NCBI GenBank assembly: GCA_033762295.1
Contig: JANRLW010000110.1
Coordinates: 1-36,944 of the forward strand
Direction: 5' to 3'
Length of the DNA stretch: 36,944 nt
Origin: Capsulimonadales bacterium
GTDB lineage: Bacteria > Armatimonadota > Armatimonadia > Armatimonadales > Armatimonadaceae
A program made the translations under genes and the position numbers. The notes under the pieces are model-generated. The model saw only the letters and a list, made by a program, of their open reading frames with translations, did no database searches and was not told the origin of the DNA. This document shows, piece by piece, positions 1 to 28,417 of the stretch (positions within the stretch are counted from its first letter, which is position 1; each line of letters opens with the position of its first letter).

Positions 1-102
1 GACGATGACGGCGCCCACATGCCGACGGGGGCAGGTCGCCCGTGTCGCGACGACACGGGCTATCTGCATGAAATACTCATCCCACGATGGCCGCGTTTCC
101 AT
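1..102 (-). CDS. dCMP deaminase / ComEB-family cytidine deaminase, N-terminal part (runs off window start)
   Basis: Not in ORF track. Manual translation from ATG at 102 gives [34 protein letters not shown], the typical dCMP deaminase N-terminus. The ATG directly abuts the glyA TAG. Confidence 0.85.
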
Positions 103-1398
103 CTACGCCGGAAGCGGGAAACGATCGCAAAGGGTTTTGACCTCCCGGCGGATCGCGGAAAGCGCCATCTCATCGCTTTTGCTCGTCAGAGCGCGATCGA
201 TCAGTTCGGCGATGGTCGGCATTTCAGCCTCGGTCATTCCCCGTGTGGTGACGGCGGGGGTACCCAGGCGCAGACCGGAGGTCACGAACGGTTTCGCCGT
301 GTCATAGGGGACCAGGTTCTTGTTGGTGGTGATCCCCGCTTCGTCCAGAGTCGACTGGGCGGTCTTTCCGGTCAGGTTTTTGGGCCGCAGGTCAAGCAGC
401 ATCAGGTGGTTGTCGGTGCCGTCGGCCACCAGCCGGTACCCGGTCGTCCGCATTGCGGATGCCAGCGCGGCGGCATTCTTCCGGATCTGCGCCTGATAGG
501 CCCGGAATCCGGGTTCCGTCGCTTCTTTGAAGGAGACCGCCTTGGCCGCGATAACGTGCATCAACGGACCGCCCTGCATTCCGGGGAAGACCGCTTTGTC
601 GATCTCTTTCGCCCATCGCTCCCGGCAGAGAATCAGTCCGCCGCGCGGTCCGCGAAGGGTTTTATGGGTGGTCGTCGTAACGATGTCCGCATAAGGAAGG
701 GGGGAGGGGTGCTCGCCCGCCGCGACCAGACCGGCGATATGCGCCATATCCACCCAGAAAACGGCGTTCACCGCGTCGGCGATCTCGCGCATCCGGGCCC
801 AGTCGATCAGGCGCGGATAGACGGTCGCGCCCCCGAGAAGCACCTTCGGCTTGTGCTGCATCGCCAGATCGTACATCCGATCGTAGTCGATGAACTCGTC
901 CTCTCTTCGGACTCCGTAGTGGACGGCATTATAAAGGAGGCCGGAGAAGTTGACCGGCGAGCCATGGGTCAGATGCCCGCCCTGAGCCAGGTCCAGCCCC
1001 AGATAGGTGTCGCCCGGCTTCATCGTCGCAAAGAAGACGGCCATGTTGGCGTTCGCGCCGGAGTGCGGCTGAACGTTGGCGTGATCCGCGCCGAACAGCG
1101 TCTTCGCCCGATCGATCGCCAGCTGCTCGACGACATCGACAAACTCGCAGCCACCGTAGTAACGTTTTCCGGGATAGCCTTCGGCGTATTTGTTGGTCAG
1201 CGACGACCCCTGTGCCTCACGAACCGCGCGGGAGACGATATTCTCGCTGGCGATCAACTCCAGCTTGTCCGCCTGACGACCGTCCTCATCACGGATCGCC
1301 GCGTACACCTCCGGGTCCGCCTCCGAGAGGGGCGCTCCGAGCCCGACGACCGTCTTCTCGGTCGGAATGCCCGGAAGGTCCTTTTCCAACATTGCCAT
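103..1398 (-). CDS. glyA: Serine hydroxymethyltransferase
   Basis: Motifs [42 protein letters not shown]. Start placed at ATG 1398 after SD AAGGAG (1408-1413). Confidence 0.97.
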
Positions 1399-3353: not shown

Positions 3354-4520
3354 ATGAATCCGCCGAAAAATTACAGTTTTCTGGTATTCGTCGCATTTAT
3401 TGTCTTGATGGGGTGTATCATCCTGGGCACCCTGGTGGCACGCCTGTCCGGGAAAAGCGAAGGACCCGTGATGGCAGGGGCCGTCTCGCAGGATCGCGAC
3501 GGAGCGATACCACCGCTGGAACCGCCGCCTGTCCGGATCGCCTCCACGCCGGACGGGAAGGGGGCGTCGGTGCCTTCGCCGTCCGGAAAGGGAACGGAGT
3601 TTGATACCGCAGTGGCCCTGTCCTCGACGGAGATCGCCCGGGGAGTTCCGGTCAATGTCGACGTCCGGGTGATTTGCCGGAAAGGTCGGTTGAAGGACGC
3701 CATCGTTGATCTGGAAATCTACTCGCCCGACGGAAAGAAAATCCATCAGGATTTCACGAACCTTCCCGCCCTGAGTAAGGGGGAGAAAGAGAACGTAAAC
3801 TTTGTCTGGGTGCCAACCAGACCGGGCAAGTACAGTATTCGCACCGGGATCTTCGATTCGGCCTGGACCAACAAGCACTGGAACCCGACAGCGGCATCGG
3901 TCACCGTGACAGGCCCGGTCGGCGCAAAAGTGTCGGAGAACGAGAGTCTTACCCTGCCGTCACCCGATGCCGTGGTTTTCGCCGATGATGTCGCCTCCGG
4001 ATGGCGGACGGAAGGGTGGGCGGATGAGATCAACCCGAGCGACACCTTCTACCAGGAAGGGAAACAGTCGCTTTCCGTGAAAAGCAACGGTCCTTTCAAA
4101 GGGATTCAATTCACCTCCGTTACCTTCGAACCGGCCCCGTACGATCGTCTGGTCTTCTATCTGCACGGCGGATTGCTCGGGGGACAGCGTCTGCGGGCTT
4201 CGGGCAAGGTAAATATCGACGGCAATTTCGAAGGGCGAAAGGGCGTCTTTCTCGCGCCGCTGGCCGCGAAACGTTGGCAGCCGGTCGTCATTCCCCTCAA
4301 AATGCTCGGTTACGAAGACGCCCGAAGAGGGGTGTCGTTTTTCGTCATGGACAACCAGGCGAAGCCGTTTCAGATCTGGATGGATAACGTTTATTTCCTC
4401 AAACCCGGGGAGAAAGCCCCGTCCCGGTCGCTGCCGATTCGCCAGATGAGTTACGGCACCGGGCAGGAGTCGACCGTCCTCGATAACCAGCCCAAACCGC
4501 TGGTGGACCCCGGAGGTTAA
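3354..4520 (+). CDS. Membrane-anchored protein with Ig-like domain and C-terminal carbohydrate-binding-module-like domain
   Basis: SD AAGGAG, N-terminal TM, Pro/Ser linker, beta-rich Ig-like segment (PGKYSIRTGIFDSAW), then jelly-roll-like GW..W / LVFYLHGG / WQPVVIPL / IWMDNVYF pattern. Confidence 0.7.
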   Translation: MNPPKNYSFLVFVAFIVLMGCIILGTLVARLSGKSEGPVMAGAVSQDRDGAIPPLEPPPVRIASTPDGKGASVPSPSGKGTEFDTAVALSSTEIARGVPVNVDVRVICRKGRLKDAIVDLEIYSPDGKKIHQDFTNLPALSKGEKENVNFVWVPTRPGKYSIRTGIFDSAWTNKHWNPTAASVTVTGPVGAKVSENESLTLPSPDAVVFADDVASGWRTEGWADEINPSDTFYQEGKQSLSVKSNGPFKGIQFTSVTFEPAPYDRLVFYLHGGLLGGQRLRASGKVNIDGNFEGRKGVFLAPLAAKRWQPVVIPLKMLGYEDARRGVSFFVMDNQAKPFQIWMDNVYFLKPGEKAPSRSLPIRQMSYGTGQESTVLDNQPKPLVDPGG

Positions 4521-13167: not shown

Positions 13168-13203
13168 TGTGATTTCATCTGTGATTTCATCTGTGATTTC
13201 ATC
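13168..13203. repeat. Perfect tandem repeat (TGTGATTTCATC)x3
   Basis: Three exact 12-bp copies at 13168, 13180 and 13192, immediately upstream of the galM SD. Confidence 0.95.
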
Positions 13204-13308
13204 GACCGGTGCGGAAAGCGGCCGGTGACGGAGGTTGTTTCCCGCCGGAGGCGCAAAATCCCTGCATCCGTCCGTCGTGCCGGCGACCGAACGCGCGAAA
13301 ACGACAAT

Positions 13309-13341
13309 TTCTCCCGCGAACGTGCGGTGTTCGCGGGAGAA
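13309..13341 (-). terminator. 13-bp stem-loop downstream of ANTAR gene, probable terminator
   Basis: TTCTCCCGCGAAC-7nt-GTTCGCGGGAGAA, with only a weak U-rich tail on the minus strand. Confidence 0.55.
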
Positions 13342-13364
13342 GCGGGGCGTGAGCGGAGTTTGGA

Positions 13365-13940
13365 TTATACGGAATTGGCGATGATGATCGCCTCGGCGAT
13401 CTCCCGCATCGATTTGCGGGTATTCATGCTCTGGACCTGGATGCGACGGAAGGCGTCCTGTTCCTTCAGGCCGTACTGATCCATCAGAATCCCTTTGGCG
13501 CGGTCGACCGCTTTGCGGGTTTCCAACCGTTCCTCCAGGGTGGCCACTTCCTTCTCCATGTCGATAAACTCTTCGTACCGGGCGATGGCGATCTCGATCG
13601 CGGGCATCAGGTCGGCTTCCTTGAACGGTTTGACCAGATACGCGAAGACGCCGGCATCCCGGGCGCGTTCCACCAGATCCTTCTGCGAGTAGGCCGTCAG
13701 CAGAAGGACCGGGGCGATCCCCTCGGTGGAGATGACCTTGGCCGCGTCGATTCCGTCCATACCCGGCATCTTGATGTCGAGGATCGCAACGTCCGGCTTC
13801 AACTCGCGGGTCATTTCGACCGCCTGTGCGCCATCTCCGGCCTCACCGATGACGATGTGGCCCATGTTCTCCAGCGTGCGTCGCAGGTCAAGCCGGATGA
13901 TCGGCTCATCGTCTGCGATTACGATACGCAGAGGTTCCAC
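13365..13940 (-). CDS. Response regulator with REC and ANTAR domains (PdtaR/EutV-like)
   Basis: IVIADDE, LDIKMP, LTAYS, YLVKP, and ANTAR ETRKAVDRAKGILM...AFRRIQVQSMNTRKSMREIAEAII. GTG start at 13940 with SD GGGAGG. Confidence 0.93.
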   Translation of the reverse strand: MEPLRIVIADDEPIIRLDLRRTLENMGHIVIGEAGDGAQAVEMTRELKPDVAILDIKMPGMDGIDAAKVISTEGIAPVLLLTAYSQKDLVERARDAGVFAYLVKPFKEADLMPAIEIAIARYEEFIDMEKEVATLEERLETRKAVDRAKGILMDQYGLKEQDAFRRIQVQSMNTRKSMREIAEAIIIANSV

Positions 13941-14065
13941 TATACTAACCCTCCCGGTTTCGTCCTCTCCGTTCGACGGAAAGGCCATTATGGTCGAGCG
14001 TCCCGAATCGGGCCGAAGGCCGTTTTGCGGAACGCATGGTTTGCCAAAAATTGTATGGTTTAAGG

Positions 14066-14215
14066 TAAGATTCCGACGAAACGGAGCGAAGAGCCCGGAT
14101 CGGAATCAGTGTACCCGGTTAACGGTCCGTTACCGTCCTTCAGACATCGCGCCACGCCAAAGGTTACGGTCCTTCAGGCAAAGGTCGCCCGCGGATCAAC
14201 TGCCGGCGCAATGTA
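14066..14215 (-). ncRNA. Candidate structured RNA / long leader with tandem CCUUUG...CUGAAGGAC(C/G)GUAAC hairpin units
   Basis: Lies downstream of a near-consensus promoter. Two related hairpins sit inside an outer stem, with G-U pairs only on the minus strand. Confidence 0.4.
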
Positions 14216-14221
14216 ATGCGG

Positions 14222-14250
14222 ATTGTATACCGAGTTCGGTTTGCCTGCAA
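14222..14250 (-). promoter_or_regulatory. Sigma70-type promoter TTGCAG-17-TACAAT
   Basis: Minus strand reads TTGCAG gcaaaccgaactcggta TACAAT. Confidence 0.65.
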
Positions 14251-14296
14251 ACCCACGCCCGGGCAAATGGAAACGGCAGGCTTGGAAAAGGGAAAA

Positions 14297-15550
14297 ATGT
14301 CAACATTGATTCCAACGATCTGGTACGACGACCGTTCGGAAACCTCCGTCGTTTCCGAAACCGGAAACGTACTGCTCTGGGCGGCGGTCGCATTCCTGCT
14401 CACCCTGGCCAACCGCTTCGCCGGGTATGTGATTCCGATCCCCGCGGCCGGGACCCTCCTCAGTCACCTGTTCGCGCTATTATACCTTGCCCTCCTGCTC
14501 CTCGCCCTTCTGCAAACCGCCCGGTATGCGGCGCGGCTGCCGGTCTCGACCGCGATGCTGGCGATTGTCGGCGTACTGCTGGCGTTCCCGATGGGCGTGG
14601 TCCTTCTGCTGCAGCAAAACCGAATTCCCCCGACCCCGTTTCTGCATCTGACGGCCAACAATCTGTTTCTGCCGATCGCGGCGGCCCTGGTCGGCGCGGC
14701 GATCGGACGGATCATCCGCCATCCGAACACGCTTCTGGCGGCCGCCGGGTTCTCGCTGTTCTTCGATATCGTCGTGGTCACCATGGGCACGGTCGCCCAG
14801 CTGATGCGGACCGGGAACAGCGCGATTATCGCCGCGGTTTCGGTCGGAGCCGGTTCGACGCCGGTGCCCGGCGCGCCGCTCTCGAAGGTGCAGCTTCCCG
14901 ACCCGATCTCCGGCGTCACAATCGGTCCCGCCGACGTCCTGTTTCTGGCGCTGTTCCAGTCCGCCGTCCATCGGATGGACCTGTCGCGACGTGCCACCTT
15001 CGCCTGGATGTTCGCACTGCTGATGCTCGCCCTGGCCATCGTCGAATTCTTTTACCTGCCGATACCGGCGCTGGTCCCGATGGGAATCGCGGTGCTGGTC
15101 GCCAACCTGCGCCACGGGGCATTCACGCCCCGCGAGAAGCGGGACCTGATCATCGGCGGAGTCTTCGCCGTTTTCTGCGCCTCCCTCATTATCGGCGGTG
15201 CGCGTTTCCTGATCAAGCCCTCCCAGGCGGTGAAGCCGGAGTTCCGAATCGAGCCGATCTCGGCGGTCGGACCGATCATCGTCGCCGAAGTGACCAAAGG
15301 GTCCGTCGCTGAAAAGGCGGGAGTTCGGCCCGGTGACGCTCTGTACGGCTTCAACGGAAAGGACCCGATGCGACTGACCTATGCGGAACTGGAGGAGGCC
15401 TGGGAGAAGGCGCGGCGGGACGGCATCCGCCTGAAACTGAAGCACATGAACAAGGGACCCATGCTCGATATCAACCTCCGTTATGACGGGACACCGCCCG
15501 GCGGCGGTTCGGACGGTGCCGGAAACGAAGAGAGGAAACCTGAGCGATGA
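14297..15550 (+). CDS. Polytopic membrane protein with presenilin/SPP-like aspartyl protease motifs and C-terminal PDZ domain
   Basis: Roughly 9-10 hydrophobic segments. FFD (Asp codon 14765), IGPAD (Asp codon 14933), IPALVP (15062-15079). PDZ-like IIVAEVTKGSVAEKAGVRPGDALYGFNG. Confidence 0.75.
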   Translation: MSTLIPTIWYDDRSETSVVSETGNVLLWAAVAFLLTLANRFAGYVIPIPAAGTLLSHLFALLYLALLLLALLQTARYAARLPVSTAMLAIVGVLLAFPMGVVLLLQQNRIPPTPFLHLTANNLFLPIAAALVGAAIGRIIRHPNTLLAAAGFSLFFDIVVVTMGTVAQLMRTGNSAIIAAVSVGAGSTPVPGAPLSKVQLPDPISGVTIGPADVLFLALFQSAVHRMDLSRRATFAWMFALLMLALAIVEFFYLPIPALVPMGIAVLVANLRHGAFTPREKRDLIIGGVFAVFCASLIIGGARFLIKPSQAVKPEFRIEPISAVGPIIVAEVTKGSVAEKAGVRPGDALYGFNGKDPMRLTYAELEEAWEKARRDGIRLKLKHMNKGPMLDINLRYDGTPPGGGSDGAGNEERKPER

Positions 15551-15619
15551 GACCGGGGGAAGCAACCGGAAACGAGATCGACGGTCAAACCTTTCGGAAA
15601 ATGATCCAAGGAGTGTGCC

Positions 15620-16600
15620 ATGAGCAATGAAGGGGGCAGTAAACTCGGTCTGATCGACCCCGAGACCGCCACACAGAGAACCCGGTCCGGCTACGACAGC
15701 CCGACCTTCACGGAGACAACGGCCCGGACCGCTGTCCCGACGCTGACCGGCGCCACACAGGAACGGCTGCGCGGCGCACTGCCCGGTGCGCCCGCCGTGA
15801 TCCTGATGGTCCTGCTGCCGATTTTTGCCATCCTTTCGTTCTTCGGAGGGGGGGTGGGCGCGATGGGCGGCATCTTTCTCACGATCCTCTGGTTTTTCCT
15901 GATGAACGGGTTCTTCACCGTCGAACCGAACGGCAGCAAGGTCCTGATGCTCTTCGGAAAGTACCAAGGGACGGTCAAGGACAACGGCTTTTTCCTGACC
16001 AATCCGTTCGTGGTCAAGCGGTCGATATCCCTGCGCGCGCGGACGCTGAACGGCGACAAGATCAAGGTGAACGATGCGGTCGGCAACCCGATCGAGATCG
16101 CGGCGGTCATTGTCTGGCAGGTCCAGGATACCTATCGCGCCTGCTTCGAGGTCGAGGATTACGAGCAGTATGTCCGCCTCCAGGCGGAGACCGCCGTCCG
16201 CCATATGGCGACCCAGTACCCGTACGATGCGGAGGACGAGCACCTTTCCCTGCGCCGGAACACCGAGGAGGTCAGCGAGGCGCTGCGCCGCGAACTTGAT
16301 GAGAAACTCGCCCGGGCAGGCGTCCATGTACTGGAAGCGCGTCTTTCCCACCTGGCCTATGCCCCGGAGATCGCCTCGGCGATGCTGCGTCGTCAGCAGG
16401 CGGCGGCGGTGATCGCCGCCCGCCAGCGGATCGTCGAAGGCGCGGTCGGCATGGTGGAGATGGCCCTCCATCGTCTGGAAGAGCACGAAACCGTTGCGAT
16501 GACCCCGGACAACAAGGCGGCGCTGGTCTCCAACCTCCTGGTGGTGCTATGCAGCGAACAGTCGGCGCACCCGGTCGTCAACGCCAGCACGCAGTCATGA
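15620..16600 (+). CDS. SPFH/band 7 domain membrane protein
   Basis: Two N-terminal TMs, then FGKYQGT, KVNDAVGNPIEIAAVIVW, LAYAPEIASAMLRRQQA, LVSNLLVVLC. SD AAGGAG. Confidence 0.92.
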   Translation: MSNEGGSKLGLIDPETATQRTRSGYDSPTFTETTARTAVPTLTGATQERLRGALPGAPAVILMVLLPIFAILSFFGGGVGAMGGIFLTILWFFLMNGFFTVEPNGSKVLMLFGKYQGTVKDNGFFLTNPFVVKRSISLRARTLNGDKIKVNDAVGNPIEIAAVIVWQVQDTYRACFEVEDYEQYVRLQAETAVRHMATQYPYDAEDEHLSLRRNTEEVSEALRRELDEKLARAGVHVLEARLSHLAYAPEIASAMLRRQQAAAVIAARQRIVEGAVGMVEMALHRLEEHETVAMTPDNKAALVSNLLVVLCSEQSAHPVVNASTQS

Positions 16601-16979: not shown

Positions 16980-18137
16980 TTATAGCCCTTGCATGGTGAA
17001 AACACGCGCCAGGAGATCGTGCGTCGGCCGAGTTCGAAGCAGGACCGCCATCAGAAGGGCGCGCGGCGTGGTGGTCGGTCCGCCCCGACCCATCCAGGTG
17101 TTAAAATGGGCGCGGTCGGCGACGATTCGCGCCCGACGACGCTGTTCCCGGTCGTATTCCGGAAACGCCTCGTCCGCCGCTCGTCGCCCCGACAACGCCG
17201 ACGCCAGGGCATCGGCCAGTCGCGCCGCGCCGATCAGGCCGCAGTTCATTCCCTGTCCGCCCATCGGACTGCAGACGTGAGCGGCGTCCCCGGCGAGCAG
17301 AACGTTCCCCGCAACCAGCCGCGCCGCCCGCCGGTCGCGGACGCGAAACCGGGAGTGCATCGCGCAGGTTTCGGGAAGGGCCGCTCGTCCGGTTCGGCGA
17401 TGTATCTCCGCCGACAGAGCGTCCGCCGACTCCGGCAGGTCGGACGTTCCGCCCAGATGTACCACCCAGCGTCGCATCCCCCCCGGCAGGGGGAACGATT
17501 CCGTAATTCCGTCCGGCGTCAGAAAAAGCGCGGCTTCGTCGCCGAACCCGCTCGTATCGGCAAAATCCCCCATCGCATAGCGGTCCGGATACTCCCGCAG
17601 ACGGCACGGGATACCGGCCTGTTCACGGACCCGACTGTTCCCGCCGTCGCACCCGATCAGGTAGCGAACACGGCGCGTTCGTACGCCCGACGGCGTAATA
17701 TGGGACACCTCCAGGGCATCGTCGGTCGGACGATGGCCGATGTACTCCTCGCCGCGTCGCAGGGCGTCGGGGTCCAGTTCCCCCAGGCGGTGTTCGAGTA
17801 ACGCTTCGGTTTCCGACTGGGGAAGGGTCAGGGCGAAGTCGAACGGGGGCGGAAGCGTTTCGGCGAAGGACATATGTCCGATCGGAGAACGACCGAAGAA
17901 CCCCTGGGCGCGGCGAATAGGCACCCCTCGCCGGAGGATTTCGTCGGCGACGCCGACCGATGCCAGCGCCGTCAATCCGGGCGGATGAAGGCCGATCGCC
18001 CGTGAATGTAATGCCCTGGACGGGCGCTTCTCCGAGACGACGCACTCGATCCCGCGCGTCAGCAAGGCGCAAGCGAGAAACAGGCCGACCGGCCCGCCGC
18101 CGACGATCAGTACGGGAACATCGCTATACGGTTTCAC
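16980..18137 (-). CDS. FAD-dependent monooxygenase (aromatic hydroxylase family)
   Basis: Motifs GGGPVG, IGCDGGNSRVR, LAGDAAHVCSPMGGQGMN. Confidence 0.92.
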   Translation of the reverse strand: MKPYSDVPVLIVGGGPVGLFLACALLTRGIECVVSEKRPSRALHSRAIGLHPPGLTALASVGVADEILRRGVPIRRAQGFFGRSPIGHMSFAETLPPPFDFALTLPQSETEALLEHRLGELDPDALRRGEEYIGHRPTDDALEVSHITPSGVRTRRVRYLIGCDGGNSRVREQAGIPCRLREYPDRYAMGDFADTSGFGDEAALFLTPDGITESFPLPGGMRRWVVHLGGTSDLPESADALSAEIHRRTGRAALPETCAMHSRFRVRDRRAARLVAGNVLLAGDAAHVCSPMGGQGMNCGLIGAARLADALASALSGRRAADEAFPEYDREQRRRARIVADRAHFNTWMGRGGPTTTPRALLMAVLLRTRPTHDLLARVFTMQGL

Positions 18138-18831
18138 CGGTTCCAGCGGCTCCGATCACCACACAGCGGAACGGGTGGGCGGTCCGCACCTCCCAGCCGG
18201 GGGGAACGATCGCCCGCAGTTCATTCGGCGTAAAACTCCTGCGGATCGAGCGCAGCCCGTCGGTCAGAATATAGGAATCGTGAAACAATCCTCCGATCAA
18301 CGGAAAACCCAGATAGGCGAGGATATGCCGTCGGATGTCGTTGTGAAGGACCAGGCCCGTCGACAGTTGTCGGGACGTCTCCAAAAAACCGGGAACGGAC
18401 TCCTCGGGCAGATGATGCAGAACATGGTTCGACAGCACGATGGTGAATCGCTCCCCGGTTTGCGCCAGGGACCGGGCGTCCGTGACGCGAAAGTCGATGC
18501 CCGGAGGCGTGTTCGACTGACAGGCGACCGCGACCGCCCGGTCATCCGGATCGATACCGAGGGCGGTGACCGAGAAGCCGTCGCGGCGCGCCCGGAGGGT
18601 CAGACGCCGCAGCACATCCCCGCCGCCGCACCCGATGTCGAGTATCCGGGCAGGTCGGTCGCTCGCGGCGAGGGCGGGACGCAGGTAACGGCGATACAGG
18701 ACGGACCAGCCGGAAACCGCCGTATTGATCAGGGCAAAGTGGCGGTACGTGCGGGCCAACCGGTCCGGGTGGCAGTCGGCCATATCCATTTTTTCCGTCA
18801 AACGGGAGGCGCGATTCGCGAGGAGAAACAC
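18124..18831 (-). CDS. Class I SAM-dependent methyltransferase
   Basis: EKMD, ILDIGCGGGD, SNHVLHH, DGLRSIRRSFT. This type is commonly paired with type III PKS. Confidence 0.9.
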   Translation of the reverse strand: MFLLANRASRLTEKMDMADCHPDRLARTYRHFALINTAVSGWSVLYRRYLRPALAASDRPARILDIGCGGGDVLRRLTLRARRDGFSVTALGIDPDDRAVAVACQSNTPPGIDFRVTDARSLAQTGERFTIVLSNHVLHHLPEESVPGFLETSRQLSTGLVLHNDIRRHILAYLGFPLIGGLFHDSYILTDGLRSIRRSFTPNELRAIVPPGWEVRTAHPFRCVVIGAAGTGETV

Positions 18832-18833
18832 GT

Positions 18834-19940
18834 TCAGACTCCGCGCAAAATCGCGCTTTCGACGGTCAGGCCCGGTCCGAAGGCCAGGGCGAGGAGCGGT
18901 TCATCCGAGTCGACGATACGGCGGTCGTACAGGGTTTCCAGCACGAAGAAAATCGTGGCGCTGCTCATGTTGCCGTACTCTCGAAGGACGTGACGGGACG
19001 CCGCCAGCGACTCCTCGCAAAGATCGAGGGCCGAACGGACTTTGTCCAGAATGGCGCGTCCGCCCGGATGGACGGCCCAGTGTCGGATCTCCTCCGGTGT
19101 CAATCCCGCATCGGTCAGGATCGGTCCGATCGCTTCGGCGATGTTGCCGTGCAGGATCTCCGGAACGTACGTGGAGAGCCGCATCACGAAGCCGTGATCG
19201 CCGATGTTCCAGGCCATATCGTCCTCGCCGGTCGGCGTCAGAGTCGAACGGAACCGTTCCAGTCGGAACGCGGGAACCCCGAGGTCGGTCCGTGCCGAGA
19301 CGATGGCCGCCCCGCCGCCATCGGCGAAGACCGACCCGCCCAGCAGGTTGTCGGGAGCGGCGTCCATCTGAAGGTGGAGGGAGCATAGTTCGAAGCATTC
19401 GACCAGGACGACGGCGCGCGCATCGGCCTGACAGATCGTCTGCGCCAGTTTCAGCGCCGGAAAGGCGGCGTAACAGCCCATGAACCCCAGGTGAAAACGG
19501 GGCGTATTCGGCGACAGTCCGCACTCCCGAACGATACGAAAATCGATGCCGGGCTGAAAGAAGCCGGTGCAGGAGGCGGTTACCACATGGGTGATTTCGG
19601 AGGGAACGAGCGCCGGACATCGCTCGATCGCCTTTTGCGCCAGTTGCGGAGCCAGGCGAGTCGCCTCCTCGGCATACCGCCGATTCCGCTCGGCGGTCGT
19701 CGGCACGCGAATCGAATCCGACGTCGGATCGAAAAACAATCCGCCCTCATGCCCCGGCAGGAAGTCCTCGATGACGCTGTGCCGTTTGGCAATCCCGGAC
19801 TGGGAGTAGAGATAATGGATGATCCGTTCGGTCTTGCGGTCGCCCCCGCCCAGAAGGCGTTTGGTCCTCTCGGCAATGTCATCCTGAGGGTAGGCGGTCG
19901 CAGGGGTTTGCGTGGCGACCGGGTAGAGGTAGACGGACAT
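18834..19940 (-). CDS. Type III polyketide synthase (chalcone synthase-like)
   Basis: Catalytic triad contexts GFMGCYAA, VHPGG and GNMSS, plus ELCSLH, FADG, FGPGLT. Confidence 0.95.
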   Translation of the reverse strand: MSVYLYPVATQTPATAYPQDDIAERTKRLLGGGDRKTERIIHYLYSQSGIAKRHSVIEDFLPGHEGGLFFDPTSDSIRVPTTAERNRRYAEEATRLAPQLAQKAIERCPALVPSEITHVVTASCTGFFQPGIDFRIVRECGLSPNTPRFHLGFMGCYAAFPALKLAQTICQADARAVVLVECFELCSLHLQMDAAPDNLLGGSVFADGGGAAIVSARTDLGVPAFRLERFRSTLTPTGEDDMAWNIGDHGFVMRLSTYVPEILHGNIAEAIGPILTDAGLTPEEIRHWAVHPGGRAILDKVRSALDLCEESLAASRHVLREYGNMSSATIFFVLETLYDRRIVDSDEPLLALAFGPGLTVESAILRGV

Positions 19941-27169: not shown

Positions 27170-27199
27170 CCTTCGTCGGAGGCGTTACGGGCTTCCCTG

Positions 27200-27232
27200 A
27201 TGGCTCCTCTGCCCGACGGCAAGAGGAGCCAT
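27200..27232 (+). terminator. Strong stem-loop downstream of E1 gene
   Basis: ATGGCTCCTCT-GCC-CGAC-GGC-A-AGAGGAGCCAT, with no clear U-tract. Confidence 0.5.
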
Positions 27233-27355
27233 GATGCTTCGACCCTGTGAAATTTTTGAAAGATTTAACGTTTTCTTAAAACACGGGAACGGCAAATTAA
27301 TGTATCGTAGAGCCGATAGTCCGTGGGCTGTCAATCTTTTCTGAGGGAAATGAGC

Positions 27356-28192
27356 ATGCGCGCCTCCATTCGAACTCGTCGAGCGTTCACCCTGATCGAA
27401 CTGCTCGTTGTCATCGCCATCATCGCGATTCTTGCCGCGATACTGTTCCCGGTCTTCGCCCAGGCTCGCGCCAAAGCCCGCCAGATCTCCTGCCTTTCCA
27501 ACGTCAAGCAGATCGGTCTGGCGATGCAGATGTACATCCAGGACTACGACGAAACCACCCCCGCCATTTTCGCGCCGAACAATGGTGCGGCAAACCTGGA
27601 CTTCTACGCACAGGTGCAGGCTTACAGTAAGAACCTGCAGATGTTCTTCTGCCCGGATCGTACCGACTCCATTACCGGCCCTTACAACGGCGATCCCTGC
27701 AACGACTCCATCAACGCCGAACCGAACGCCCGCTGTATCGGCTACGGCTATAACTGGGGCGTCACCTCCGGCTACAAGTTTGGCCTGACGCTTCCTCGCA
27801 TCCGTATTCGGGGAGCCCAGACCTTCAACATCGAACCGGGTGTAACTCTGGCATCGATCGCCGCGCCCGCCGATATGTTTGCATTCGCCGACACCGGTGA
27901 CAGCCCGCGCTACACCATCTGCTCCAACTTCATCTTCCAGTACTACTACCCCACCACCCGGTCCGGCGAAACCCGCCACGGCGGTATGCTGAATGTCAAC
28001 TTTGTGGACGGCCATGCCAAGGCGATGCCCTGGAAGATCGGCACCATCGGCACCGACGTCTTCGGTATGCCCAGACGTCCGGAAGATCAGGTGAAGTATT
28101 GCCGCGACCCGAAGGGTATCGGTGAGGGGCAAACCGTGGTCTGCGAGGACTATGTCAAGGCCCTCGATGCCGCCATCACCTGGAATAACTAA
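27356..28192 (+). CDS. Prepilin-type N-terminal cleavage/methylation domain protein, DUF1559-like, with H-X9-DG motif
   Basis: [49 protein letters not shown] and [21 protein letters not shown] 9 nt before ATG 27356. Confidence 0.92.
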
Positions 28193-28246
28193 AACGACCG
28201 TGAAATGCGGGAGGACCGATCGTCGGTCCCCCCGCAGGATACGAAC

Positions 28247-28417
28247 ATGAAAAAAACGATCACCCTGTGCTTTGTCAGCCTGACCGCGCTCGGATGCCTC
28301 CTTGCCGGCTGTACCGGGCAACCGCCGGTCGCCAAAAAAACGTCCGACCCCGAATCGCAGCGGAAAATGTCCGAACTCGGGTTAACCCCCAAGAAAACCT
28401 TCAACAACGGCGAGTAA
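28247..28417 (+). CDS. Small lipoprotein (56 aa precursor)
   Basis: MKK + hydrophobic core + lipobox LAGC. SD AGGA upstream. Confidence 0.75.
   Translation: MKKTITLCFVSLTALGCLLAGCTGQPPVAKKTSDPESQRKMSELGLTPKKTFNNGE

Follow-up and report, generated by a model that had tools for sequence, protein, structure and literature searches.

A gene in Armatimonadota that very probably encodes a distant presenilin/signal peptide peptidase relative joined to a PDZ domain

The locus and its annotation

The window, that is, the whole stretch of 36,944 nucleotides that was analysed, contains, according to the open reading frame list, an open frame at positions 14216-15550 of the forward strand, in which the in-frame ATG at 14297 yields a protein of 417 amino acids (P0001). 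The protein collection gives the same length for P0001. Another in-frame ATG, at 14216, would make the product 27 residues longer. The features of the gene and of its conserved neighbour are collected in Table 1.

Proteins of this family are at present labelled 'hypothetical' or 'PDZ domain-containing protein', and one of them is mislabelled as RseP. Scans of P0001 found no Pfam or NCBIfam model covering the membrane domain; the NCBIfam LIC_13387 family matched residues 217-268 weakly (15.9 bits, with a cut-off of 33).

Upstream lies a divergently transcribed response regulator gene with an ANTAR domain, which is conserved at related loci. An Rfam scan of positions 13200-15700 found nothing and a promoter and terminator scan found nothing telling; nothing therefore points to an ANTAR-type leader RNA. 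Comparison of the related loci found no substrate gene conserved beside the protease gene. The downstream SPFH/Band 7 gene was considered as a partner and rejected, being kept in 1 of the 20 related loci that have at least 1,500 nt downstream.

Table 1. Coordinates of the gene, its predicted features and its conserved neighbour in the window
Feature	Position	Strand	Basis
Response regulator with ANTAR domain, divergently transcribed, conserved neighbour	13365..13988	-	Neighbourhood comparison
Whole gene, 417 aa plus stop (P0001)	14297..15550	+	ORF list, retranslation, protein collection
First modelled helix, residues 17-45	14345..14431	+	Outside the part aligning with solved presenilin/SPP structures
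Catalytic core (putative), residues 52-276, modelled helices 2-8	14450..15124	+	Aligns with presenilin-1/2, SPPL2a and PSH
FFD155-157, hydrophobic residue plus Asp, helix 5; D157 putative first catalytic Asp	14759..14767	+	Retranslation; 80/80 relatives
Loop between the Asp helices, residues 164-207, with conserved AVSVG and GVTIG	14786..14917	+	Alignments, model
GPAD210-213 within IGPAD, GxGD-type, start of helix 6; D213 putative second catalytic Asp	14924..14935	+	Retranslation; 80/80 relatives
PAL257-259 within IPALVP (256-261), start of helix 8	15065..15073	+	PAL 52/80, PGL 12/80 relatives
Polar loop N270-E280 preceding the last helix	15104..15136	+	N270 79/80, E280 80/80 relatives
Last helix (residues 278-305), outside the core that aligns with A22	15128..15211	+	Model
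Glu315, just before the PDZ domain, in place of the carboxylate-loop Gly	15239-15241	+	Alignment
PDZ domain, residues 316-395	15242..15481	+	Pfam, phmmer, fold search, alignment

Conserved motifs of the membrane domain

An earlier note on this DNA had picked out FFD157, IGPAD213 and IPALVP, in this order, as the signature of a presenilin-type protease. Retranslation of the coordinates reproduced all three strings, and helices were modelled in agreement with them at 143-163, 211-226 and 259-269, with a loop of about 45 residues separating the first two. The two conserved Asp residues thus lie on consecutive modelled helices, and PAL opens the second helix after the one that carries the GxGD-type motif.

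In an alignment of 41 close relatives, D157, G210, P211, A212, D213, P257 and A258 are invariant. When 80 relatives were compared in an alignment with a mean column identity of 16%, D157, G210, D213 and E280 were invariant, and G133, F216, P257, L259 and N270 were at least 90% conserved. The helix-5 Asp follows a hydrophobic residue in every one of the 80, and PAL or PGL is present in 64 of them, which bears out the conservation of both Asp residues and of PAL that the note had raised. The note had also remarked on the Ala in front of the second Asp. This position varies naturally within the family: Ala is found in 43 of the 80 relatives (GxAD) and Gly in the other 37 (classical GxGD), the protein studied here having GPAD. 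By the account of the earlier note, Ala212 would correspond to the residue of the PS1 G384A variant. N270 and E280 are, judging from the alignments, specific to this family.

Fold of the membrane domain

An AlphaFold model of the membrane part alone was obtained with a pLDDT of 88.9 and a pTM of 0.86. It contains nine helices, with D157 on the fifth, D213 on the sixth and PAL on the eighth. This does not match the nine-helix scheme of A22, where helices 6, 7 and 9 bear the first Asp, GxGD and PAL, respectively; relative to A22, the model has an extra helix at each end, and only residues 52-276 (helices 2-8) align. The last helix brings the chain to the PDZ side of the membrane. In the modelled loop between the Asp helices, single beta-bridge residues occur at 183 and 209. 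These may be the counterpart of the beta-hairpin of SPPL2a and PS1, a comparison that is tentative because the pLDDT of the loop is low.

We aligned the membrane model to all 48,161 representative PDB chains. The best match was SPPL2a (9k93_A; Z 11.5, rmsd 4.0, 192 residues aligned), followed by PSH (4hyc_A, Z 8.8), presenilin-2 (7y5z_B, Z 8.1) and presenilin-1 (4uis_B, Z 7.6); the row below these four A22 chains had a Z of 5.1. When the best-ranked Foldseek chains were realigned, the top 24 rows were all presenilin-1, presenilin-2, SPPL2a or PSH (Z 7.8-12.2), and rank 25 was an unrelated chain with a Z of 5.2. The best realigned chain, 8oqz_B, matched model residues 52-276 with a Z of 12.2 and an rmsd of 3.7 over 196 residues. 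Foldseek itself, run with the membrane-only model against the PDB, ranked A22 chains first, its top 16 rows coming from the same presenilin, SPPL2a and PSH families, with no row at an E of 0.001 or better; run with the full model, it returned PDZ matches only. In the fold search with the full-length model, SPPL2a was the sole non-PDZ entry among the top 50 (Z 10.1). For helical bundles, Z values below about 13 can be reached by chance with this tool, so what counts here is that the best matches all belong to these families and that a gap separates them from the next rows. By the model, the membrane part has the presenilin/SPP fold, as the earlier note had proposed: A22 fills the top 4 of the 48,161 chains and the top 24 realigned rows.

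Relation to family A22

The links by sequence are weak. The Pfam A22 models gave no match to this protein at E values up to 10, and neither PF06550 nor PF04258 matched anywhere in this genome. PF06550 likewise found nothing in 151 Armatimonadota genomes, while detecting two archaeal control genomes. The Pfam Presenilin model PF01080 matched one of the 80 relatives over profile positions 333-392, with an E of 0.00099 and a score of 18.4 bits that lies below the cut-off of 34.3. Searched against PDB sequences, the family profile hit a presenilin-1 fragment with GLGD and PAL in register (E 0.1) and ranked an acetylcholine-receptor transmembrane segment first (E 0.033), neither match being significant. 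Bridging searches with the family alignment returned no A22 Pfam domain among the matches listed, and the same was true of the eight matches listed for the relative that weakly matched Presenilin. Among the clustered predicted proteins of the ESM Atlas, the nearest named cluster was an SPP-domain cluster (score 0.81, a lead only), and by structure archaeal presenilin clusters were found at TM 0.50-0.56.

Together with the fold, we read these results as pointing to a family within the presenilin/SPP superfamily that lacks annotation and lies outside A22A and A22B. The protein is a distant relative which in all probability works as A22 does, but it is not a demonstrated A22 member, because the Pfam A22 models fail and the modelled helix order differs. 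The earlier reading thus stood as regards the fold, the conserved Asp residues and PAL, and is qualified by the missing Pfam A22 match and the different helix order.

Two other classes of intramembrane peptidase were considered and rejected. For type IV prepilin peptidases (MEROPS A24), PF01478 gave no match at E values up to 10, and the Asp residues here lie on consecutive helices; excerpted text of PMC2947513 describes those of prepilin peptidases as lying in soluble loops, several helices apart. For site-2 proteases, there was no PF02163 match, and TIGR00054 scored 14.5 bits, against a cut-off of 147.55, over the PDZ part only.

The PDZ domain

The C-terminal PDZ domain was found both by sequence and by fold. 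Judged against Pfam PF17820 and PF00595, it was recognised by PDZ_6 over residues 328-360 with an E of 4.3e-07 (30 bits, cut-off 27); phmmer against PDB sequences retrieved the PDZ tandem of Aquifex RseP with an E of 8.1e-11; and the fold search with the full model gave PDZ chains up to a Z of 11.0 over model residues 307-398. The fusion that the earlier note had read from the sequence is therefore borne out. Its remark that such an architecture is not known as characterised in bacteria agrees with our literature search, which found no description of a GxGD protease with a PDZ domain.

The carboxylate-binding loop of PDZ domains has, as its motif, a Gly with a hydrophobic residue next to it. 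In the corresponding column, whose position depends on the alignment, Gly is present in 38 of the 41 relatives, with F, W, I or L as the next residue; the protein studied here has Glu315, and its nearest relative, P0002, has Asp. The motif of Gly plus a hydrophobic residue was thus not found in the alignment for this copy of the PDZ domain, which would count against simple capture of a C-terminus by this copy. Gating of the protease by the PDZ domain is something that we only infer.

Distribution of the family

The membrane domain is present in 145 of the 151 sampled Armatimonadota genomes, mostly as a single copy. No fusion to a PDZ domain was seen outside the window's own family, where 7 of 7 genomes have it. 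In a quick tree of the relatives, 16 close relatives form a clade without PDZ, so the core function can do without the PDZ domain. The idea that the protein replaces RseP was rejected, since an M50 protease carrying a PDZ domain is encoded elsewhere in this genome.

Membrane orientation and proposed mechanism

Lys and Arg are unevenly distributed among the loops of the membrane domain. Helices 2, 4, 6 and 8 are followed by short loops with 8.0 Lys and Arg over 34 residues. The figure is 2.9 over 40 residues for the loops that follow helices 1, 3 and 7, and 2.8 over 41 residues for the long loop that separates the two Asp helices. Because of this distribution, the long loop and PAL probably face outward, in an SPP-like manner, with the PDZ domain outside; the substrates would therefore be proteins with the N-terminus inside. 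Lys and Arg are also frequent directly behind the last helix (3.9 per 21 residues where a PDZ domain is fused, 1.5 per 8 where it is not), which would fit a cytoplasmic C-terminus.

Our preferred reading, with a probability of roughly 65%, is that the gene product is a di-aspartyl intramembrane protease of the GxGD type within the presenilin/SPP superfamily, belonging to an unannotated, Armatimonadota-wide family whose members in the window's own family are fused to PDZ. In such an enzyme, modelled helices 2-8 would form a presenilin-type core in which D157 on helix 5 and D213 at the start of helix 6 would pair up and activate water, with PAL257-259 lining the active site. As SPPL2a and PS1 do, the enzyme may use short strands in its loop of about 45 residues to pair with a substrate strand that has unwound. 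The substrate, a single-pass helix, would enter sideways from the lipid and be cut within the membrane; with the N-terminus inside, candidates would be signal peptides left over in the membrane or type II anchors that have been trimmed. Through the additional last helix, the chain would return outward and set the PDZ domain over the outer mouth of the enzyme, where it might recruit or screen substrates in the way that the PDZ of RseP acts as a filter. It is conceivable, and we put this forward as a tentative and rather doubtful proposal, that an aspartyl protease has independently gained the PDZ solution of the zinc protease RseP. The enzyme would then lie in the SPP-like orientation, and its outer PDZ domain would sense how large a trimmed stub is, or its free C-terminus, and so decide its entry to the active site; such a stub would have its N-terminus inside and be a signal-peptide remnant or a shed type II anchor.

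Alternative explanations

The same presenilin-fold protease might lie in the membrane in the presenilin-like orientation, with the long loop, PAL and the PDZ domain in the cytoplasm, substrates having the N-terminus outside and the PDZ domain binding cytoplasmic tails or a regulator. The Lys/Arg-rich segment after the last helix, in fused and unfused proteins alike, would agree with this arrangement; the Lys plus Arg totals of the two sides come close once this segment and the long loop both enter the count, and in the realignment of the best-ranked Foldseek chains PS1 bound to substrate or inhibitor has a slightly higher Z (12.2) than SPPL2a (11.5), a difference within the tie range of the tool. 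However, the four short loops of the opposite side have about three times the Lys plus Arg density, the PDZ sequence is closest to the periplasmic PDZ of RseP, and in HtrA, Ctp/Prc and RseP, the bacterial PDZ proteases that have been studied well, the PDZ lies outside the cytoplasm. On balance, we regard the presenilin-like orientation as unlikely.

It is also imaginable, though in our view improbable, that the presenilin-fold protein is no longer proteolytic and serves, for example, as a scaffold, a channel or a PDZ-bearing sensor. Catalysis by family members is inferred from the sequence and the model, the Pfam A22 models fail on the protein, the helix order is unlike that of A22, and the near-invariant, family-specific N270 and E280 hint at a function beyond the A22 signature. 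Among the 80 very divergent relatives, however, both Asp residues, the Gly of GxGD and PAL are retained, as would be expected if selection acted on catalysis; dead relatives of enzymes usually lose such residues. That the Asp, GxxD and PAL strings resemble presenilin by chance in an unrelated membrane protein with several passes, for instance a transporter, is hardly credible. Middling Z scores are frequent for helical bundles and the sequence match to A22 is not significant, but all four chains with a Z above 7 among the 48,161, and 24 of 24 top realigned rows, belong to A22, transporter rows reach a Z of 5.0 or less, and the invariant motifs occur in the A22 order on matching helices.

Comparison with known systems

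Presenilin and SPP are medically important, and their choice of substrates is hard to study. A bacterial single-chain enzyme with the presenilin fold, present in nearly all of the sampled Armatimonadota genomes (145 of 151), would widen the prokaryotic base for such studies. The PDZ-fused form and its close PDZ-less relatives would make a natural pair for examining the control of substrate entry by an outside domain. If PDZ gating is true, the protein would be the first GxGD protease known to be gated by a PDZ domain, and it would offer a simple bacterial model, made of a single chain, for substrate selection of the presenilin type. Prokaryotic homologues opened structural work on rhomboid and site-2 proteases, and for the GxGD proteases the prokaryotic model described in the excerpted text is archaeal PSH (PMC2947513).

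The closest of the known systems by fold in the search of all chains is SPPL2a (MEROPS A22B, PDB 9K92/9K93), with the values given above. The SPP family has the same order of motifs, with the hydrophobic residue and Asp first, GxGD second and PAL third, and a loop of 40-60 residues between the Asp helices according to excerpts of PMC12745688, compared with about 45 here. Its orientation, with the loop outside, would be the same as the probable one here. The same excerpts describe a beta-hairpin in this loop, a reversed topology and type II substrates for the SPP family, and a distance of 4.7 A between the two Asp residues of SPPL2a (PMC12745688). The differences are a sequence identity to SPPL2a of 10-11% with no PF04258 match, Asp helices that are the fifth and sixth instead of the sixth and seventh, one additional helix at either end, and a bacterial protein with a PDZ domain at its C-terminus where SPPL2a has an N-terminal luminal domain.

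Presenilin-1 and presenilin-2 (MEROPS A22A, the catalytic subunit of gamma-secretase) share the fold with a Z of up to 12.2 over 196 aligned residues, model residues 52-276 corresponding to PS1 73-453, and the C-terminal fragment of presenilin-1 has GxGD and PAL in register with this family in the non-significant profile match (E 0.1). Presenilin differs in having partner subunits, none of which is suggested here, and a long cytosolic loop, which is absent here; its orientation in the membrane is probably opposite, and PF01080 does not match this protein. Archaeal PSH/MCMJR1 (PDB 4HYC, 4HYG, 4Y6K; PF06550) is, like the protein described here, prokaryotic, of similar size and a single chain, and its fold matches with a Z of 8.8-10.8. 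It is a demonstrated Asp-dependent, cofactor-free GxGD protease in the excerpted account of PMC2947513. PSH has a different number of helices before the first Asp and lacks a PDZ domain, and its Pfam model PF06550 misses the Armatimonadota family.

RseP, a site-2 protease (MEROPS M50), is likewise an intramembrane protease joined to PDZ, and excerpts of PMC9380251 describe its PDZ as a filter that excludes intact substrate. RseP differs from the protein described here in being a zinc metalloprotease whose membrane core is unrelated and whose PDZ is inserted between helices instead of being added at the C-terminus. The PDZ domain of this genome's own RseP is 34% identical to the one described here over 67 residues.

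Identification of the P0001 gene and its motifs

The open reading frame at 14216-15550 (+) holds an ATG at position 14297, and translation from this codon yields P0001, the 417-aa protein studied here, in the form that also stands in the protein collection. The earlier note had proposed a bacterial presenilin/SPP-like intramembrane aspartyl protease fused to a PDZ domain, and each of the motifs it named (FFD, IGPAD and IPALVP) was borne out by retranslation of the corresponding sub-ranges. The membrane part of P0001 (residues 1-310) was covered by no model of Pfam or NCBIfam, both of which were scanned.

Motifs and predicted helices of P0001 and the two neighbouring genes (helices according to the membrane-only model)
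Feature	Residues	Window (nt)	Strand	Remark
FFD	155-157	14759-14767	+	
GPAD	210-213	14924-14935	+	inside IGPAD
PAL	257-259	15065-15073	+	inside IPALVP
Helix 1	17-45			outside aligned core
Helix 2	54-79			
Helix 3	85-107			
Helix 4	114-139			
Helix 5	143-163			carries D157
Helix 6	211-226			D213 at start
Helix 7	231-252			
Helix 8	259-269			PAL immediately precedes
Helix 9	278-305			outside aligned core
Response regulator with ANTAR domain		13365-13988	-	head-to-head with P0001 gene
SPFH/Band 7 gene		15620-16600	+	69 nt downstream of P0001 gene, same strand

The membrane part of P0001 resembles presenilin and SPP in fold

Two AlphaFold models were analyzed: one of the full-length protein, built from an alignment of 41 sequences (pLDDT 81.3), and one of the membrane part alone, built from 80 sequences (P0001, four relatives with a PDZ domain, and 75 shorter or more distant sequences), with pLDDT 88.9, pTM 0.86 and nine helices. 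Foldseek returned PDZ chains only for the full-length model; for the membrane-only model, the top 16 rows belonged to the PS1/PS2/SPPL2a/PSH families, at E-values of 0.04-0.3. When the membrane-only model was aligned with all 48,161 representative PDB chains, four exceeded Z 7 and all were members of A22, namely human SPPL2a (9k93_A, Z 11.5, rmsd 4.0, 192 residues aligned, model residues 57-276), archaeal PSH (4hyc_A, Z 8.8), PS2 (7y5z_B, Z 8.1) and PS1 (4uis_B, Z 7.6); the fifth row was a photosystem chain with Z 5.1. Realignment of Foldseek's 771 best-ranked chains placed PS1, PS2, SPPL2a or PSH in all of the top 24 rows (Z 7.8-12.2, 145-196 residues aligned, rmsd 3.4-5.0), led by 8oqz_B (Z 12.2, model residues 52-276 against PS1 73-453), with a drop to Z 5.2 at rank 25. 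For the full-length model, SPPL2a was the sole non-PDZ entry among the top 50. Chance Z-scores of up to about 13 are possible for helical bundles with this alignment tool; the argument for the fold is that a single protein family matched, 2.5 to 7 Z units above all else, with the motifs on corresponding helices. The A22-like fold proposed in the earlier note was recovered in the structural comparison. In the ESM Atlas of clustered predicted proteins, the nearest named cluster, 'signal peptide peptidase domain-containing protein' (score 0.81, a lead only), has PF04258 on 24% of its members, and a search by structure found two archaeal presenilin clusters with TM 0.50-0.56.

Profile searches gave a different picture of membership in A22. 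No Pfam A22 model reached E 10 against P0001, neither PF06550 (archaeal PSH) nor PF04258 (SPP) matched anywhere in its genome, and PF06550 matched none of 151 Armatimonadota genomes, while two archaeal control genomes were detected. PF01080 (Presenilin) was matched by one of 80 relatives (E 0.00099, 18.4 bits vs a cut-off of 34.3, profile positions 333-392), and the family profile aligned with the presenilin-1 C-terminal fragment with GLGD and PAL in register, at E 0.1. No proteins bridging the P0001 family to A22 were found. The helix order also differs from that of A22, as the Asp residues of the model are on the fifth and sixth helices and PAL on the eighth; helices 2-8 alone align with the solved A22 structures, leaving one extra helix at each end. 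Since the A22 models are blind to the family and the helix order differs, we did not file P0001 in A22A (presenilin) or A22B (SPP). We read the family as a separate, unannotated one within the presenilin/SPP superfamily, comprising putative proteases that very probably work in the same way. The proposed presenilin/SPP assignment therefore stands for the fold match and the order of motifs, but not for a Pfam A22 match or the helix order. Fold and motifs lend good support to the reading of P0001 as an aspartyl intramembrane protease of the presenilin/SPP type that carries a PDZ domain; we infer its catalytic activity, its orientation, its substrates and gating by the PDZ domain. Among the papers listed in searches of a limited literature collection, none described a GxGD protease with a PDZ domain or this family, and none dealt with Armatimonadota together with presenilin.

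Conservation of the motifs

Of 7,999 candidates scored against whole P0001, 125 had E <=0.001. Few of these were named, as 'hypothetical protein', 'PDZ domain-containing protein' or, once, 'RseP', and those with a named organism came mostly from Armatimonadota lineages. The alignment of 41 whole-protein relatives contained 40 invariant columns, among them D157, G210-P211-A212-D213, P257-A258, HPNTL at 142-146, N270 and E280. Residues 1-310 gave 210 matches at E <=0.001 among 1.84 billion representative proteins (46 at 1e-10 and 19 at 1e-30), the weaker ones being mostly 270-350 aa long, which leaves no room for a PDZ domain. Mean column identity in the 80-sequence alignment was 16%; D157, G210, D213 and E280 were nonetheless invariant, and G133, F216, P257, L259 and N270 were at least 90% conserved. 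Both putative catalytic Asp residues thus proved to be conserved in all 80 sequences. The residue preceding D157 was I, V, F, A, L or M in every one of them. The second motif reads G-x-G-D in 37 and G-x-A-D in 43, and therefore the Ala before the second Asp, described in the earlier note as a Gly-to-Ala change, is a normal alternative in the family and not peculiar to P0001. For the third motif, in which P257 and L259 are conserved, 52/80 sequences have PAL and 12/80 have PGL.

N270 (79/80) and E280 (80/80), which are conserved like the putative catalytic Asp residues, lie in a polar loop preceding the last helix (window 15104-15136). The portions of the A22 literature consulted mention no counterpart of them.

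Predicted orientation in the membrane

In the 75 unfused relatives (without PDZ), the short loops after helices 2, 4, 6 and 8 carry 8.0 Lys+Arg in 34 residues, compared with 2.9 in 40 residues for the loops after helices 1, 3 and 7, and 2.8 in 41 residues for the long loop between the Asp helices. The positive-inside rule would therefore put the C-terminus on the outside, along with the PAL entry and the long loop. According to PMC12745688, SPP is oriented opposite to presenilin, an arrangement associated with type II substrates; the one predicted for P0001 would be that of SPP. The positive charge directly past the last helix points against it (1.5 Lys+Arg in the 8-residue tail of unfused relatives, 3.9 in the 21-residue linker of fused proteins). 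Judging from the sequences, we consider an SPP-like orientation probable; with an outward C-terminus, the PDZ domain would be outside the cytoplasm.

The membrane-only model contains single beta-bridge residues at positions 183 and 209, within the conserved stretches AVSVG and GVTIG. SPPL2a activity requires a loop-6 beta-hairpin (PMC12745688), of which these residues, modeled in a low-confidence loop, could tentatively be the counterpart.

The PDZ domain

The C-terminal part of P0001, described earlier as PDZ-like, turned out to be a true PDZ domain: it matched Pfam PDZ_6 (E 4.3e-07, 30 bits vs a cut-off of 27), phmmer against PDB sequences found the Aquifex RseP PDZ tandem (E 8.1e-11), and PDZ chains reached Z 11.0 over model residues 307-398. 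By sequence it is nearest to the RseP PDZ domains, and the PDZ of the genome's own M50 protease is 34% identical to it over 67 residues. The PDZ of RseP excludes intact substrate from the active site (PMC9380251). By analogy, a filtering or recruiting role would be the natural guess for P0001. In the column of Glu315, which we take to be the PDZ carboxylate-binding loop, Gly is kept in 38/41 relatives; P0001 has Glu (nt 15239-15241) and its nearest relative, P0002, Asp. P0001 is therefore less likely to work by simply capturing free C-termini, and Glu315, together with a PDZ-less clade of close relatives, sets limits on the filtering or recruiting guess. In this genus, the PDZ domain may have a different mode of binding or none.

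Distribution of the family and of the PDZ fusion

Of the 151 Armatimonadota genomes sampled, 145 matched the membrane-domain profile at E <=1e-5 (129/135 among those with completeness >=90% and contamination <=5%), mostly with one copy per genome, as in that of P0001. The profile matched none of the five genomes of family f17 (G016, G030, G044, G057 and G070; 96-97% complete). Among the matches listed for the full-length profile, which are the strongest ones, with 193 weaker ones besides, seven span the membrane part and PDZ; these represent all 7/7 genomes of the window's own family, that of P0001 included, and the remaining matches cover the membrane part alone or PDZ alone. The tail past the invariant Glu in near relatives was at least 100 residues long in 99, leaving room for PDZ, and shorter in 22 (mostly 25-62 residues).

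In a quick maximum-likelihood tree, built from 121 membrane domains after six N-terminally truncated rows had been dropped and midpoint-rooted for drawing only, PDZ must have been gained or lost at least 3-4 times. Sixteen PDZ-less proteins form a clade (support 88) within the fused group, a pattern that fits one gain followed by loss, the order of events not being fixed by the tree.

In other families, the open frame that contains the membrane domain ranges from 500 to more than 1,000 aa, which suggests recurrent additions at the C-terminus; the family has thus gained other large additions besides PDZ. The frames are 1,021-1,427 aa long in family f16 (G056, G043, G082, G029 and G015) and about 500-620 aa in G018, G021, G071, G095 and G142.

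Genomic surroundings

The ANTAR response regulator is highly conserved (81-95% identity within the family). Of 29 related loci (L002-L030), 25 keep it paired with the protease gene and the other four have <700 nt upstream; it also stands beside unfused orthologues in 6/30 loci of other families (L037, L040, L044, L045, L047 and L051). The spacer is under about 100 nt in some loci. In the window it contained no Rfam RNA family and no terminator, so no functional link to the regulator was shown. SPFH/Band 7 proteins are frequent companions of membrane proteases; the pairing with the SPFH/Band 7 gene is kept in only one (L002) of the 20 related loci that extend far enough downstream.

The window is ordinary chromosome with a G+C content of 58-67%, and its genes include those for serine hydroxymethyltransferase, PheT, GMP synthase and a penicillin-binding protein. 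Two long open frames overlap the P0001 gene in other frames, 13726-15312 (+) of 528 aa and 14480-16486 (-) of 668 aa; they are rich in Arg, Gly and Pro and seem to be a by-product of the high G+C and not genes. At E 1e-5, Pfam matched none of three further frames of 272-388 aa, at 3354-4520 (+), 18175-18993 (+) and 27185-28321 (-). A type III polyketide synthase gene with chalcone/stilbene synthase domains (16980-18137, -) lies near a gene for an FAD-dependent monooxygenase (18834-19940, -), and the two may form a small biosynthetic pair.
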